A DNA stretch of 64,000 nucleotides from Alphaproteobacteria bacterium. Its GTDB lineage: Bacteria; Pseudomonadota; Alphaproteobacteria; JAOXRX01. The notes under the pieces were generated by a model. The model did not search any database and had not been told where the DNA came from. It saw nothing but the letters and a program-made list of their open reading frames with translations. This document shows, one piece after another, positions 9,181 through 52,058 of this stretch; within the stretch, counting starts at the first letter, position 1, and each line of letters starts with the position of its first letter. Both the position numbers and the translations under genes were made by a program. The stretch lies in NCBI GenBank assembly GCA_025800285.1, contig JAOXRX010000062.1:2346-66345 (forward strand), in the 5' to 3' direction.

Positions 9181-9786
9181 ATGTCATCAGTATTAACAGT
9201 AGAAGATAAAAAGATAATTAATAGATTATCTGAAATTGAAAACTTTGATAATTACAAACCTGTATCTTCTAAAATTTTAAAACAAAAATTAAGGTATGAG
9301 TTTGAAAAAATACACTACACTTTAGACAGACTGTATAACTATAATAATGAAAAATTAGAGATAAAAAACTTTCCTATTCAAAAAATTAAGAACACTAAAC
9401 AAAATAAATATTATTTTTATATGAATCCTCATAAGAAATGTTTGCAATGGGTCTCTGAAGAATTAAGAAAAGATCATGGAGAACCAGATTTCATACCAGA
9501 AAATTGGAAATCAACAGTATTATTAGCAAATATACTAAAGATTTCTAACAATAGACTCTATACTGAAGTAAAAAGAATATATGAAAACAAAAACTCTTGG
9601 GACCCCCAAAAAGAGGGGTTTGAGTTTCCTATTAAAGAAGGTCAAAAAATTAATAAAAAATATACAAAAGGATATTATTTAAATCCTGATAAAAAAGTAA
9701 TGGAATGGTTTAAAAATATAGTAAACAAATCTCTTAAAAATAAAACTAAAAGAAGGGTTAATAATAGCTTTTACATAACTCCTTAA
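9181..9786 (+). CDS. Hypothetical lysine-rich protein, 201 aa, with two internal repeats of a YY(F/L)NP(H/D)KK-x-(L/M)(Q/E)W(V/F) motif.
   Basis: ORF with RBS AAGGAA. Internal repeats YYFYMNPHKKCLQWVSEELRK and KGYYLNPDKKVMEWFKNIVNK. No known domain. Confidence 0.5.
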   Translation: MSSVLTVEDKKIINRLSEIENFDNYKPVSSKILKQKLRYEFEKIHYTLDRLYNYNNEKLEIKNFPIQKIKNTKQNKYYFYMNPHKKCLQWVSEELRKDHGEPDFIPENWKSTVLLANILKISNNRLYTEVKRIYENKNSWDPQKEGFEFPIKEGQKINKKYTKGYYLNPDKKVMEWFKNIVNKSLKNKTKRRVNNSFYITP

Positions 9787-9857
9787 AAACTTAGCTGTAC
9801 TTTTATTAAATAATGTGATATTATTATATAATATTTTAATAAAAGGAGATAGGTAAA

Positions 9858-10181
9858 GTGAATAATATTATAATAAATCACAACTGGTTATCCTCTGAAG
9901 ATTTGGCTAAAAGATATAATATAAAAGTATTTGATGCCTTAGATGTAATAGATAAGTTAAAGAAACAAAAAGAAAATTTAGAATATATAAAAGTCGGTAG
10001 AAAAAAGAAAACAGATTTTGTTAATAAAACTTTTATTTCTCCAGAAGAAGACTTTTTAAAGAAAGTAAAAAAAGAATTACAAATAATTCATAAGAAGAGA
10101 ATAGCTATATCACAAAAAATAAAAATAACAAAACAAAAAAGTTTAAGCAAAAAAAGAAATAGAGAGAAGGAAAAAATATAA
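9858..10181 (+). CDS. Hypothetical lysine-rich protein, 107 aa, GTG start.
   Basis: RBS AAGGAGA 7 nt upstream of the GTG. The region is extremely A-rich. No known domain. Confidence 0.4.
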   Translation: MNNIIINHNWLSSEDLAKRYNIKVFDALDVIDKLKKQKENLEYIKVGRKKKTDFVNKTFISPEEDFLKKVKKELQIIHKKRIAISQKIKITKQKSLSKKRNREKEKI

Positions 10182-10292
10182 AAATTTAGTTCCTGAAGAT
10201 AGCTTATCTGCAAATGATTTAGAGAAAATTACCAAAATTAGAGCAAACACAATTAGAAAAATTCTAAAAGAATTATATAAATTGAAAGGTTC

Positions 10293-10751
10293 ATGGGGGG
10301 CTCAAAAACTTTTCCCTTCCCTATAGTAAAAGGCTTAAAACTAAGAACTTCTGGTTATGAAGGGTTGTATATATTGGCAGATAAAAAATCAAAGAATTGG
10401 GCTTATAAGCAATTAGGAGCTAACATAAAATCATACATAGATGATTCTTTTTTAAGTTATAAAGATATATCTGAAAAAACAGGTTTAGATACCGAGCTAA
10501 TCAAAAACTTTCTAAGAAATTCATTTGAAAATAAAGAAAACTTAGATAAGTATTTTAAGAACTCTATAGTAAAAGGAAGAAAAAAACATCATTCTTCTAC
10601 ACAAATTTATTTAGACTCTAGCGAAGAGGCCTTAAACTGGTTCAAGCAAGAAATAAAAGTAAAAAGACCTTCAATTGAAGAGGCTAAAAAGACTAAAATA
10701 GTACCTATCTTAAACACAAAAAAAGTTATATCTGAAAGTCTTGTTATATAA
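10293..10751 (+). CDS. Hypothetical lysine-rich protein, 152 aa, sharing the SSEEALNWFKQEIK motif with the 9181-9786 ORF.
   Basis: ORF with RBS GAAAGG. Contains IYLDSSEEALNWFKQEIKVKR, a module similar to those in the neighbouring gene. Confidence 0.45.
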   Translation: MGGSKTFPFPIVKGLKLRTSGYEGLYILADKKSKNWAYKQLGANIKSYIDDSFLSYKDISEKTGLDTELIKNFLRNSFENKENLDKYFKNSIVKGRKKHHSSTQIYLDSSEEALNWFKQEIKVKRPSIEEAKKTKIVPILNTKKVISESLVI

Positions 10752-12744: not shown

Positions 12745-12770
12745 TTTTTATTCCTTTTACCTCTTTTTTT

Positions 12771-12836
12771 TAATACTCTCCCCCTGTGGGAGGGTCGAAA
12801 CTAGTTTTGCTAGTTTCGGGGAGGGGTGCAATTTTC
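12771..12836. repeat. GC-rich hairpin repeat, copy 1 (ctctccccctgtgggaggg...cgaaactag-ttttg-ctagtttcg...gggagggg). It overlaps the 3' end of the DUF559 gene.
   Basis: Nested inverted repeats. It resembles the copies at 13205-13272 and 13300-13390 and stands out as a GC-rich island in AT-rich DNA. Confidence 0.5.
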
Positions 12837-13211
12837 ATTGCATATTACATCATTTATTCTTTCAATGCAACCCTCAATATTTTCTAATATATCGTTGTTC
12901 CAAAATCTTAAAACTTTAAAATCACGATCTCTCAAATCTTTATCCCTTTGTTTGTCCTTTTCGCTACCACAATGTTGGCTACCATCTAATTCTATAATCA
13001 ACTTTCTTTCTAAACAAATAAAGTCAACAATGTATTTATTGTCTAAGACATACTGTCTACGAAATTTAACTCCCAATTGTTTATTTCTAATAAACTTCCA
13101 CAATATAATTTCTTCTTTTGTTGATGCCTTTCTCATATTTCTTGAAAATGTTTTGATATTTTCTTTTATTTGAGTATGACAAGGATTATCATATATAGAG
13201 CTATTAACCAT
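12810..13211 (-). CDS. DUF559 / Vsr-like (very-short-patch-repair endonuclease fold) endonuclease-domain protein, 133 aa.
   Basis: C-terminal motif FKVLRFWNNDILENIEGCIERI, typical of the DUF559 restriction-endonuclease-like family. GC-rich hairpin repeats overlap both termini. Confidence 0.65.
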   Translation of the reverse strand: MVNSSIYDNPCHTQIKENIKTFSRNMRKASTKEEIILWKFIRNKQLGVKFRRQYVLDNKYIVDFICLERKLIIELDGSQHCGSEKDKQRDKDLRDRDFKVLRFWNNDILENIEGCIERINDVICNENCTPPRN

Positions 13212-13390
13212 ATATACCCTCCCCTTGTGGTAGGGTCAAATCTGCGAGCAGATGTGGGGAGGGTTGCATAATTGAAAAGATAGAACTAAACACTTATATT
13301 GCACCCCTCACCCAATCGAGCTTCGCCCTTCGACAAGCTCAGGGAACTTGCTCTCTTGGACTCTCCCACAAAGGGAGAGTATTTAATGCA
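13205..13390. repeat. Two more copies of the GC-rich hairpin repeat, 13205-13272 (accctcccc...gtggggaggg) and 13300-13390 (..ctctccc-acaaa-gggagag..).
   Basis: Same ccctccc / gggaggg palindromic core as copy 1. Perfect 7-bp stem ctctccc/gggagag at 13358-13376. Confidence 0.5.
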
Positions 13391-13437
13391 TGTAATTTTC
13401 CTTTTGATAATTTTTCTTATCATTTGTTTGCTTTCTT

Positions 13438-14160
13438 TTATTTTTTATAAAAAGGTGCTATAACCTTTTTAGTTTCCCAACTAGAATCTCCTGTTAAAGA
13501 TAAAATCTTATTAGTAAGCTTAACCACTTCTTTTATTTCTTTATTTTTAAATGATGTGTGAAAAACTTTACTAAATTCTTTATACATTTTTTCATCTTGC
13601 TTATTTAAAGCTCTTAATCTATGTTTTTCAACTCTAGTAGTTGACCACATTTTGTTATATCTTAAATAAAAATCAGAAAGAGTCCCATACAACAAACTAA
13701 GAGAAGTATAAAAATCACTTTCATTCTTTGCACCAATAACATCATCTCTAGCATCAGCTATTATATGTTTATAAGTGTATATTTCTTGTTTAGACAATAC
13801 TTTAGGACCTTTTTTAAGAAGTTTCTTAGCTTTGTTCTGTATTCTTTTACTTACTTTGTTTTCTATCATAGGTTTAGCAAAACCTAACATATATAAAGCT
13901 CCACCGGTCCCCAAGTTCCTAGCTCTTTCAAACCATAAATTAAGGCTTTTTTCAGAATTAAAGAATAATTCAACAGGGAAATCTTTATAATAAAAACTTT
14001 TTCTATATGCTTTAGGTAAATCTTTATCTGACATAATTATTTGTATATCTATATCAGAAGCTTTTGTTTCTAATCCACTTGCAAAAGACCCGCATAAAAA
14101 TACAGTTTTAGCTTTTGGATATTTCTTAATTATATCATTAACTATTTCTAAATGTTTCAT
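13438..14160 (-). CDS. Nucleotidyltransferase of the Pol-beta superfamily (KNTase / aminoglycoside-nucleotidyltransferase-like; N-terminal NT domain plus C-terminal helical domain), 240 aa.
   Basis: Motif LCGSFASGLETKASDIDIQII (GS-x9-DxD signature). The start codon lies 1 nt from the gatA stop. RBS AGAGGG. Confidence 0.65.
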   Translation of the reverse strand: MKHLEIVNDIIKKYPKAKTVFLCGSFASGLETKASDIDIQIIMSDKDLPKAYRKSFYYKDFPVELFFNSEKSLNLWFERARNLGTGGALYMLGFAKPMIENKVSKRIQNKAKKLLKKGPKVLSKQEIYTYKHIIADARDDVIGAKNESDFYTSLSLLYGTLSDFYLRYNKMWSTTRVEKHRLRALNKQDEKMYKEFSKVFHTSFKNKEIKEVVKLTNKILSLTGDSSWETKKVIAPFYKK

Positions 14161-36499: not shown

Positions 36500-36573
36500 G
36501 GCGCGGTGGCGGAGAGGCTACGCAGAGGTCTGCAAAACCTTGTACACCGGTTCGAGTCCGGTCCGCGCCTCCA
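36500..36573 (+). tRNA. tRNA-Cys (GCA).
   Basis: 74-nt cloverleaf: GGCGCGG acceptor stem, anticodon loop cuGCAaa, T-arm GGTTCGAGTCC, and an encoded CCA. Confidence 0.9.
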
Positions 36574-49008: not shown

Positions 49009-49094
49009 TGGTGGCCTCGGCCGGACTTGAACCGGCACGTCCAAAGGACACACGATTTTAAGTCGTGGGCGTCTACCAATTCCGCCACGAGGCC
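49009..49094 (-). tRNA. tRNA-Leu (TAA) with a long variable arm.
   Basis: On the reverse complement: GGCCTCG acceptor stem, anticodon loop cuUAAaa, long variable arm, T-arm GGTTCAAGTCC, and CCA. Confidence 0.85.
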
Positions 49095-51586: not shown

Positions 51587-51684
51587 TTTTCTAACTTTCT
51601 TTTGGTTTTATTTCAAATAGAGTTAATTTATATACTTTTTTTAAGAATAAGTCAAGAGAAAAGACTAAGTATATAAATAAAAAA

Positions 51685-52058
51685 GTAATGGACGGGCTGT
51701 AAGCCGGGTTCTGTCAAAGATAACTATTCATCTAGATTATACATTACTGCATAATTCTTGCAACCTACCTATCGGTTATAAGGTGTGGGAATACACCTAA
51801 AGAACGAATCTTTTCCCGTTAATTTGGTCTTGCTCCTGATAGGGTTTACCTTGCCTGTAACTATCACTAGCACAGCGGTGAGCTCTTACCTCACCTTTTC
51901 ACCATTACCAACAAAAGCTGGCAGTCTATTCTCTGTGGCACTTTCCCGTAGATTACTCCAGCTGGCCGTTAACCAGTATCATATTCCCATGGAGCCCGGA
52001 CTTTCCTCAAGCACTAGGTTTCCCAATTGTACCCGCAGTTATCACCCATCCATTTAAC
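51685..52058 (-). ncRNA. rnpB: RNase P RNA (bacterial type A).
   Basis: The reverse complement carries the universally conserved blocks GGAAAGTCCGGGCTCCAT, GGTGAAAAGGTGAGGTAAGAGCTCACC, AGGAGCAAGACCAAAT and CTAGATGAATAG...GACAGAACCCGGCTTACAG. Its P1 pairs with the 5' end. The ORF at 51785-52057 is antisense to this RNA. Confidence 0.85.

Follow-up and report, generated by a model that had tools for sequence, protein, structure and literature searches.

A DUF559 gene bounded by inverted structured repeats, and a nucleotidyltransferase gene, between gatA and gatB of an alphaproteobacterial gat operon

The window considered here, a stretch of 64,000 nt from an alphaproteobacterium (GenBank assembly GCA_025800285.1, contig JAOXRX010000062.1, positions 2,346 to 66,345 of the forward strand), carries a gatCAB operon in which a nucleotidyltransferase (NTase) gene and a gene of the DUF559 family stand between gatA and gatB. 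An initial annotation made from the sequence alone had given the order gatC-gatA-NTase-DUF559-gatB together with three copies of a structured repeat. This order is borne out on the minus strand by the calls of open reading frames (ORFs) and by Pfam (Table 1). The ATG of the NTase gene lies 1 nt past the TAA of gatA, also as annotated, with AGAGGG directly upstream, and translation of the NTase probably depends on coupling to gatA. The operon strand of the insert was found free of terminator-like sites; therefore, read-through to gatB is plausible. Contigs of four other samples have the same arrangement with identical proteins and represent the same species. Other contigs and loci used for comparison are designated by L-numbers (L127, L128, L107 etc.).

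Table 1. Features of the gat operon and of the insert in the window.
Feature	Position	Strand	Description
gatC	15931-15644	minus	first operon gene; PF02686 GatC, E 1.5e-19
gatA	15637-14162	minus	PF01425 Amidase, E 7e-142
NTase, 240 aa	14160-13438	minus	Pfam NTP_transf_2 and Polbeta
Left-hand duplication copy (~60 nt)	about 13450-13387	minus	local alignment of both flanks
Relic of ancestral gatB start	13423-13387	minus	alignment with gatB starts of relatives
Repeat C	about 13298-13386	minus	left boundary of the DUF559 module; reads forward along the gene strand
Repeat B	about 13214-13270	plus	degenerate copy, one mismatch in hairpin 1
DUF559 gene, 133 aa	13211-12810	minus	PF04480, E 2.5e-33
Repeat A	about 12769-12832	plus	right boundary of the module; opposite orientation to C
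Right-hand duplication copy (~60 nt)	about 12773-12708	minus	local alignment of both flanks
gatB, intact	12744-11293	minus	GatB_N, E 1e-110; GatB_Yqey, E 3.5e-55

Between the two added genes, 14 nt past the NTase stop codon, lies a relic of the ancestral gatB start (ATGATAAGAAAAATTATCAAAAGGAAAATTACATGCA) comprising the start codon and the first ~12 codons. Both the present gatB start and the gatB starts of the relatives L127, L128 and L129 align with it; the alignment score is 44 against 20.8 +/- 3.5 for shuffled sequences, and none of the 2000 shuffles scored as high. At present, the relic opens a spurious ORF of 45 amino acids (aa) that extends into repeat C, and it is located just outside the repeat-bounded DUF559 module. 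Since the relic stands between the NTase gene and the module, the NTase gene already adjoined gatB when the module came. By its position relative to the relic, the NTase gene is the first and independent insertion, and the DUF559 module is the second. The single mobile cassette that had been proposed for the locus is thereby not supported, the relic dividing the insert into two events.

The module of ~613 bp (13386 to 12774) entered gatB ~36 nt inside the gene. Its termini are formed by inverted (T/A)AATACTCTCCC, and the duplication of ~60 nt at its sides supplies the ribosome-binding site, the ATG and the first codons of the current gatB. The locus L107 provides a second case, in which the module lies inside a gene start and a 47-nt duplication including the ATG rebuilds the gene (flanks at about 1390-1480 and 1890-1960). 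The gene in L107 is presumably carB, to judge by its first codons (MPKRTD...). A classical insertion sequence or transposon was considered for the module and rejected, given that it has no transposase domain and that the duplications are long (47 to ~60 nt) and confined to 3 of 39 loci. As a separate observation, the 90-nt flanks of the DUF559 module in L076 are near-identical over the full length compared (score 135, z 38.7). With several motif copies close to the module as well, it may be surrounded by a larger tandem or segmental duplication.

Comparison of the gatCAB locus in relatives, which the initial annotation had named as a check, showed sites that are empty or differently filled at 83-87% GatB identity to the window. 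In L127 (GatB 87%), the gap between gatA and gatB is 8 nt. In L129 (GatB 83%), a partial ORF upstream, probably gatA, stops 5 nt before gatB. In L128 (GatB 84%), a gene of a 166-aa NUDIX hydrolase (L128:5486-5986) is located exactly between gatA and gatB, at the position of the NTase gene. With L127 and L129 empty and L128 having the NUDIX gene instead, the insert is lineage-specific rather than ancient and conserved. Different passenger genes seem to have been taken up repeatedly at the gatA|gatB junction in this lineage.

The 24-nt core of the repeat has exactly three matches in the 64 kb at up to 3 mismatches, none being expected from shuffles, and a looser structure-based detector found no further repeat in the rest of the window. 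The repeats contain 53-54% GC against 30% in the window; the annotated GC islands in AT-rich DNA are thus confirmed together with the number of copies. Repeat C is longer than the others and consists of hairpin 1 (ACTCTCCC/GGGAGAGT), a linker of ~45 nt and the tail GGGTGAGGGG; its DNA fold has -16.1 kcal/mol (z -3.5). Repeats B and C form a tail-to-tail inverted pair, the fold of B having z -2.9, and repeat A folds as two hairpins (z -4.2). The pyrimidine and purine arms make a Watson-Crick hairpin in copies A and C, and in copy B with one mismatch. As C runs forward and A in reverse, the DUF559 gene is flanked by inverted repeats. Repeats had been described as overlapping both termini of this gene. 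This is correct for the 3' end, where the last 7 codons and the stop codon lie in copy A, and incorrect for the 5' end, where 2 nt separate copy B from the ATG and the copy provides a Shine-Dalgarno sequence, GGAGG, 8 nt upstream of the start codon. Likewise, the palindrome ccctcccc...ggggaggg, given as the mark of the family, is present in exact form in copy B only, and the family is not a simple palindrome.

The three copies and those flanking the nearest DUF559 homologues share one plan, which consists of an ATAC prefix, hairpin 1, one T, hairpin 2 and a G-rich tail. In hairpin 1, a CTTG-type loop separates the pyrimidine arm from the purine arm; hairpin 2 is free in sequence, and the G-rich tail mirrors the purine arm of hairpin 1. 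An exact-pattern scan for the 24-nt core with one genome per species located it in 35 genome loci, all with the shared plan, among Rickettsiales, Rhizomicrobium, Rhodospirillaceae, Parvibaculum, Gastranaerophilales, Bdellovibrionales and others. Hairpin 2 has at least 6 consecutive pairs in 27 of the 42 distinct instances, against 9% when the 3' arm is swapped between instances; on this comparison, hairpin 2 is maintained by compensatory change. Where the hairpin was perfect, the purine arm asymmetric and the linker short and anchored, the tail matched the purine arm better as a mirror than as a direct repeat in 79 cases and less well in 5, with 38 ties, nearly always with a 3-nt linker. A cruder test with a free gap gave 63 against 53, which is no separation. 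In the mirror rule A is answered by A or T; the tail changes together with hairpin 1 without being the Watson-Crick partner of the pyrimidine arm. In the window, GGGAGGG is mirrored with GGGGAGGGG and GGGAGAG with GGGTGAGGGG. The repeat design is that predicted for an intramolecular purine-motif triplex, foldable as single-stranded DNA. From the sequence alone, a G-quadruplex of the purine arm and the tail is possible as well; for the E. coli element described below, the G-quadruplex was ruled out by nuclear magnetic resonance (NMR) (PMC4666352).

By this design the repeats are assigned to the BoxC / PIT / TM_ECO family of intrastrand triplexes, with the window copies as a variant of it. This identity was absent from the initial annotation. 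The literature on BoxC comprises Bergler 1992, Hoyne and Maher 2000 and Holder et al. 2015 (PMC4666352). BoxC, the PIT element and TM_ECO are the same element, noticed in 1992 beside envM/fabI, with the consensus CCCTCNCCC-N3-6-GGGNGAGGG-N3-GGGNGAGGG and 9-nt stems (PMC4666352). Triplex folding of TM_ECO was demonstrated by circular dichroism and NMR on Escherichia coli sequences only (PMC4666352). There are 23 copies in E. coli MG1655, 3610 in 262 proteobacterial genomes and many more in cyanobacteria; the element has been linked to genome instability, and no function is known for it (PMC4666352). No association with a gene had previously been reported for BoxC, and the word 'endonuclease' does not occur in the text of that study (PMC4666352).

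BoxC/PIT/TM_ECO and the window repeats have in common the pyrimidine arm, the loop, the purine arm and the mirrored G-rich third segment with A or T answering A. The two are also alike in high GC content, in intergenic position, in frequent inverted pairing and in their spread over many phyla. In contrast to BoxC, the arms of the window copies have 7-8 and not 9 nt, and where BoxC has its second loop of 3 nt they carry a hairpin or a long linker spanning 19-47 nt, which places them outside the published consensus. Many other DUF559-adjacent copies, which have a short linker, fit this consensus.

A second known family was revealed by Rfam in the E-value mode, there being no match at the locus at the gathering threshold. 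Copy A matches whalefall-1 (RF01762) with 23.2 bits (gathering score 37) and E 0.0014 over the full model length, 1-56. Copies B and C were not reported against this model, and no genome locus reaches 37 bits; several copies at the DUF559 locus L106 have 20-33.5 bits. Whalefall-1 was described as a non-coding RNA from whale-fall metagenomes only (Weinberg et al. 2010, PMC2864571). It shares with the repeats the GUAUC prefix, hairpin 1, hairpin 2 and the conserved G-rich 3' tail, although the window and L106 copies stay under the gathering threshold (23 bits and up to 33.5 bits, respectively). Taken together, the data suggest that whalefall-1 is a branch of the DNA repeat family tied to the nuclease gene.

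Larger repeated units containing the motif were observed in two groups of the genomes scanned. In the 'Candidatus Oxydemutatoraceae' metagenome-assembled genome (MAG), the motif lies within a unit of ~165 bp that is present as four tandem repeats (L046:1437-1955) and recurs elsewhere on the 2-Mb contig (also L036, L037, L041). In the Gastranaerophilales MAGs (L018, L021, L032, L033, L038), flanks of tens of nt on each side are conserved at several loci of one genome, and the motif is part of a larger repeated element.

The 133-aa protein matches DUF559 (PF04480) with 114.7 bits against a gathering score of 20.6 over profile positions 2-107 of 109, and DUF559 and MTES_1575 are its only Pfam matches. 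All columns invariant in 70 sequences, including E74, Q79, H80, D86 and R89, are kept in the window protein; D63 and D76 are nearly invariant. Judged by these residues, the nuclease looks active. The family profile finds the PDB entry 3HRL (1e-37), the homing-endonuclease domain 3R3P (6e-3) and, marginally, Vsr itself (E 0.037). The entry 3R3P was deposited as 'Mobile intron protein' and is presumably I-Bth0305I, a Vsr-like homing endonuclease. Through this weak profile match, 3R3P is a precedent for a Vsr-like fold in a homing endonuclease. E. coli YcjD (3HRL) belongs to the same Pfam family as the window protein, and a BoxC copy adjoins its gene too. At 69 bits, the window protein falls short of the cut-off of 218 for the YcjD equivalog and is therefore placed in a different subfamily. 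No DUF559 relative of it was found in the phage collection searched. We know of no function for any DUF559 protein.

For the nearest DUF559 homologues (58-61% identity) the site is lpxI|lpxB, and the two-hairpin repeat is forward upstream and inverted downstream of them. A homologue with 64% identity is found in a different context and has the short repeat form on its flanks. The association was then measured on 80 metagenomic loci picked by DUF559 peptide patterns only (38-57% identity), with the motif scored without the window sequence. A forward motif was present within ~220 nt upstream of the DUF559 gene at 59 of the 80 loci, and an inverted motif downstream at 50 of 75. Among unrelated DUF559 loci, 63 of 72 had the motif on either side, and 38 of 72 had the forward copy upstream together with the reverse copy downstream. 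The background was 18 motifs in 194 kb lying more than 300 nt from the gene. The downstream copy commonly holds the stop codon, and the upstream copy commonly ends a few to tens of nt before the ATG. The link between DUF559 genes and the repeat, which the initial annotation had raised for this locus, is thus general, the unit recurring across unrelated contexts and phyla. Cultured cases include Deinococcus proteolyticus pDEIPR03, Azospirillum lipoferum 4B p3, Sinorhizobium meliloti pSymB and E. coli K-12. From the side of the repeat, none of the 35 motif loci had a DUF559 gene within 8 kb; therefore, most copies are gene-less.

In E. coli K-12, ycjD is located between sapF and fabI, with TM_ECO no. 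9 ~170 nt past its stop codon and a degenerate CCCTCTCCC hairpin over the stop codon itself. The chance of such proximity for a given gene was estimated from 18 BoxC sites in 4.6 Mb as a few per thousand. A decayed second copy of the last ~45 nt of ycjD (GAGACGGTGCTGGAGAATATTC...CTGAACCG) was observed between the stop codon and BoxC no. 9 (L133:5230-5430), a possible trace of an earlier duplication or rearrangement at the repeat. Of 5426 complete E. coli genomes, 3378 have ycjD and 4605 the type-A motif, these figures being totals and not counts per genome. A publication on the EefABC efflux pump refers to ycjD several times and may cover what stands in its place in the others. Three motif copies were found in O157:H7 strains other than those without the sapF-ycjD side, and no genome was covered for both. 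A literature search of non-exhaustive coverage returned no paper tying DUF559 or ycjD to BoxC, PIT or triplex repeats. The pairing of DUF559 with the repeat appears to be new, its components (DUF559, BoxC/PIT/TM_ECO, whalefall-1 and the KNTase fold) being already known.

Two collinear contigs, L005 and L006, allow the unit to be followed at one site. At the lpxI|lpxB site, the identity between them is 90.9% for the DUF559 gene and 96.8-98.9% for the 650-nt flanks; the nuclease gene changes faster than the housekeeping genes around it. In addition, L005 has a gene of a 104-aa GIY-YIG nuclease between infC and an ABC-F gene (L005:1016-1330), which is absent from the collinear L006 (~97-99% identical); in this group of genomes it is a further small nuclease gene that is polymorphic for presence and absence.

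The NTase matches NTP_transf_2 and Polbeta of Pfam with E 1e-6 to 5e-7 over the first ~50 residues only. Its catalytic motif is G24-S25-x10-D36-x-D38, the spacing of x9 given earlier being wrong, and G24, S25, D36 and D38 are conserved among the homologues. A word-indexed search for homologues returned the query alone; an exhaustive HMMER search yielded 479 representative homologues, full-length at ~240-250 aa and with ~30% identity. The nearest (46% identity) lies among rmuC, ygjP-like and transporter genes with no gat operon and no DUF559 gene nearby, and a second one adjoins glutamate-synthase-like genes; the two neighbourhoods gave no functional hint. The AlphaFold model, built on 61 sequences, has a pLDDT of 94.9 and a helical C-terminal domain. 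Foldseek placed ANT(4')-Ia (1kny, 6p01) at the top over the whole length, with a template modelling (TM) score of 0.62-0.65, E 3e-8 and 12-14% identity. Further matches were the uncharacterised NTase 3c18, the Hailong HalB NTase, ANT(4')-IIb and LinB.

The KNTase/ANT-like character that had been annotated thus holds at the level of the fold (TM 0.62-0.65 to ANT(4')-Ia), and no curated resistance family qualifies. Against the NCBIfam ANT(4')-II models (ANT_4p_I / ANT_4p_II, cut-off 350), the NTase scores 17.1 bits over the N-terminal 43 residues only. ANT(4')-Ia and its relatives ANT(4')-IIb and LinB have the same two-domain fold and the same GS...DxD catalytic motif. In contrast to the ANT(4') family, the window NTase is only 12-14% identical and sits in a housekeeping operon and not in a resistance context. 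By its modelled fold the protein would be a two-domain KNTase-type enzyme; a role in resistance is speculation. PADLOC gave no meaningful defence-system assignment for the NTase or the locus. An MNT-HEPN type VII toxin-antitoxin system was considered and rejected, as the NTase has 240 aa and not ~100-140, no HEPN neighbour is present, and the score to MntA is 22.9 bits with a cut-off of 60.

The explanation favoured here, which is on balance probable, is that of two unrelated insertions, the second being a selfish DUF559-repeat module that works like REP/RAYT with a Vsr-like nuclease. In it, the NTase gene of the KNTase fold slotted between gatA and gatB, with its translation probably coupled to gatA. 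The ~613-bp module then entered gatB, where the ~60-nt duplication restored the gatB start and left the operon working. The putative DUF559 nuclease may recognise the folded repeat in single-stranded DNA, for example at the replication fork, and nick beside it. Repair or copying could then spread both the gene-plus-repeat unit and gene-less solo or paired repeats. The anatomy of the locus, the order of events, the empty sites, the identity of the repeat family and the general association with DUF559 follow from the data; the action of the nuclease on the repeats, and the mobility of the unit by that route, are what we infer. As a tentative extension, held with less confidence than the two-insertion explanation itself, DUF559 nucleases such as YcjD might be the missing enzymatic partners of BoxC/PIT/TM_ECO, and the whalefall-1 'RNA' might be a DNA element of the same family.

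The analogy is closest to REP/REPIN with RAYT, in the mode of working and not in family. In both, the gene is usually present as a single copy and flanked by inverted structured repeats. The many gene-less singlets and doublets of a REP genome may have a counterpart in E. coli K-12, with 23 BoxC copies and one ycjD. Unlike RAYT, the window enzyme is a Vsr-like PD-(D/E)XK protein and not an HUH/Y1 (IS200/IS605-like) transposase. The repeat of the window has a third strand predicted to form a triplex, whereas REP is just a hairpin that carries a GTAG tag. Among homing endonuclease genes, the free-standing ones (including I-Bth0305I, 3R3P) resemble the module as small nuclease genes lying in or between conserved genes without destroying them. 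In contrast to these, DUF559 modules are found at varying sites (the gatB start, lpxI|lpxB, the putative carB start, fabI|sapF), therefore no single homing site exists, and homing endonuclease genes are not known to carry flanking structured repeats.

Several points weigh against a selfish module of this kind. Near-identical DUF559 genes in different contexts, the expected trace of recent movement, were not found in the sample. Long flank duplications accompany only 3 of 39 DUF559 loci, which leaves no regular insertion signature. The other 63 kb of the window contain no solo copies, and at a minority of loci, for example in Deinococcus, the repeats have the opposite orientation. In other E. 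coli genomes, including O157:H7 and BEN2908, only the fabI side of the fabI-sapF interval matches there. Finally, the authors of the triplex study found no link of BoxC to mobile elements or gene classes (PMC4666352).

The main rival explanation, considered unlikely, treats the repeats as cis-acting expression elements in the 5' and 3' untranslated regions of the nuclease gene, the solo copies arising by another route such as slippage at polymerase-blocking structures. Here the repeats would mask the Shine-Dalgarno sequence of a nuclease that may be toxic, or make its mRNA more stable, and would travel with the gene by ordinary recombination or horizontal transfer, and DUF559 might be a host repair nuclease handling such structures. 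The G-rich arm or tail that lies 5-40 nt before the ATG and supplies GGAGG agrees with this, as do the stop codons covered by the downstream copy at many loci, the insert free of terminator-like sites on the operon strand, and the retention of the unit at the same site in L005 and L006 with the gene diverging faster than its flanks. The Rfam curators also judged whalefall-1 to be an RNA. However, the mirror relation fits a purine-motif triplex, which forms in DNA and not in RNA (literature quoted in PMC4666352), and the downstream copy, being the reverse complement, would place the C-rich strand in the mRNA. Furthermore, tens to hundreds of gene-less copies per genome require a spreading mechanism, and PIT elements had neither promoter nor terminator activity in earlier work (summarised in PMC4666352).

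The remaining explanations are far less probable. If the repeats were genes of trans-acting small RNAs of the whalefall-1 type, with the proximity of DUF559 incidental, the match of copy A to the full RF01762 model (E 0.0014) and the 20-33 bits of the L106 copies would be accounted for. This is very improbable, as all matches remain below the gathering score of 37, both orientations occur within one transcription unit, the DUF559 association is far above background, and the 'unpaired' tail is explained by the DNA triplex rule. It is equally hard to believe that the NTase and DUF559 form one two-gene system (toxin-antitoxin or anti-phage) or a single cassette. The genes are adjacent on the same strand, and the N-terminal part of the NTase has weak matches to the MntA-type antitoxin and PDC-S09 profiles; yet the gatB relic splits them into two events, the nearest NTase homologues have no DUF559 neighbour, and in a gene-by-gene inspection of DUF559 loci none had such an NTase at its side. 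PADLOC and NCBIfam scores also fall far short of the thresholds, and there is no HEPN partner. Least credible of all is that the insert has long belonged to the gat operon of the lineage as a conserved housekeeping feature. The contigs of four other samples with the same arrangement and identical proteins might be cited for it, but they are of the same species, and relatives at 83-87% GatB identity lack both genes.

Elsewhere in the window, the RNase P RNA (class A, 51684-52053) and two tRNA genes (36500-36570 and 49012-49094) are the sole above-threshold Rfam matches. Three lysine/asparagine-rich ORFs of 201, 107 and 152 aa at 9181-10751 share a segment type, YYLNPDKKVMEWFK / IYLDSSEEALNWFKQE. 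In the same-species contig L002, this region was called as 457 aa and 201 aa, with no Pfam match recorded.

The BoxC/PIT/TM_ECO repeat is abundant, folds as a proven triplex and marks unstable regions, and three decades have passed without a function, a mobiliser or an associated gene for it. A physical link to one small nuclease family provides a concrete hypothesis that is testable in E. coli K-12, with ycjD and 23 repeats. The locus itself presents selfish DNA, if the favoured explanation holds, that entered the coding start of an essential gene and survived by means of a rebuilding duplication. If true, the DUF559-BoxC partnership would explain the origin, the spread and the genome instability of a repeat that has been without a known function or mobiliser since 1992. 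It would be a second system of the REP/RAYT type, with another enzyme fold and with a non-B DNA structure as the recognition element. It would also give a role to DUF559, a very large family, and an Rfam 'RNA' would become a DNA element.

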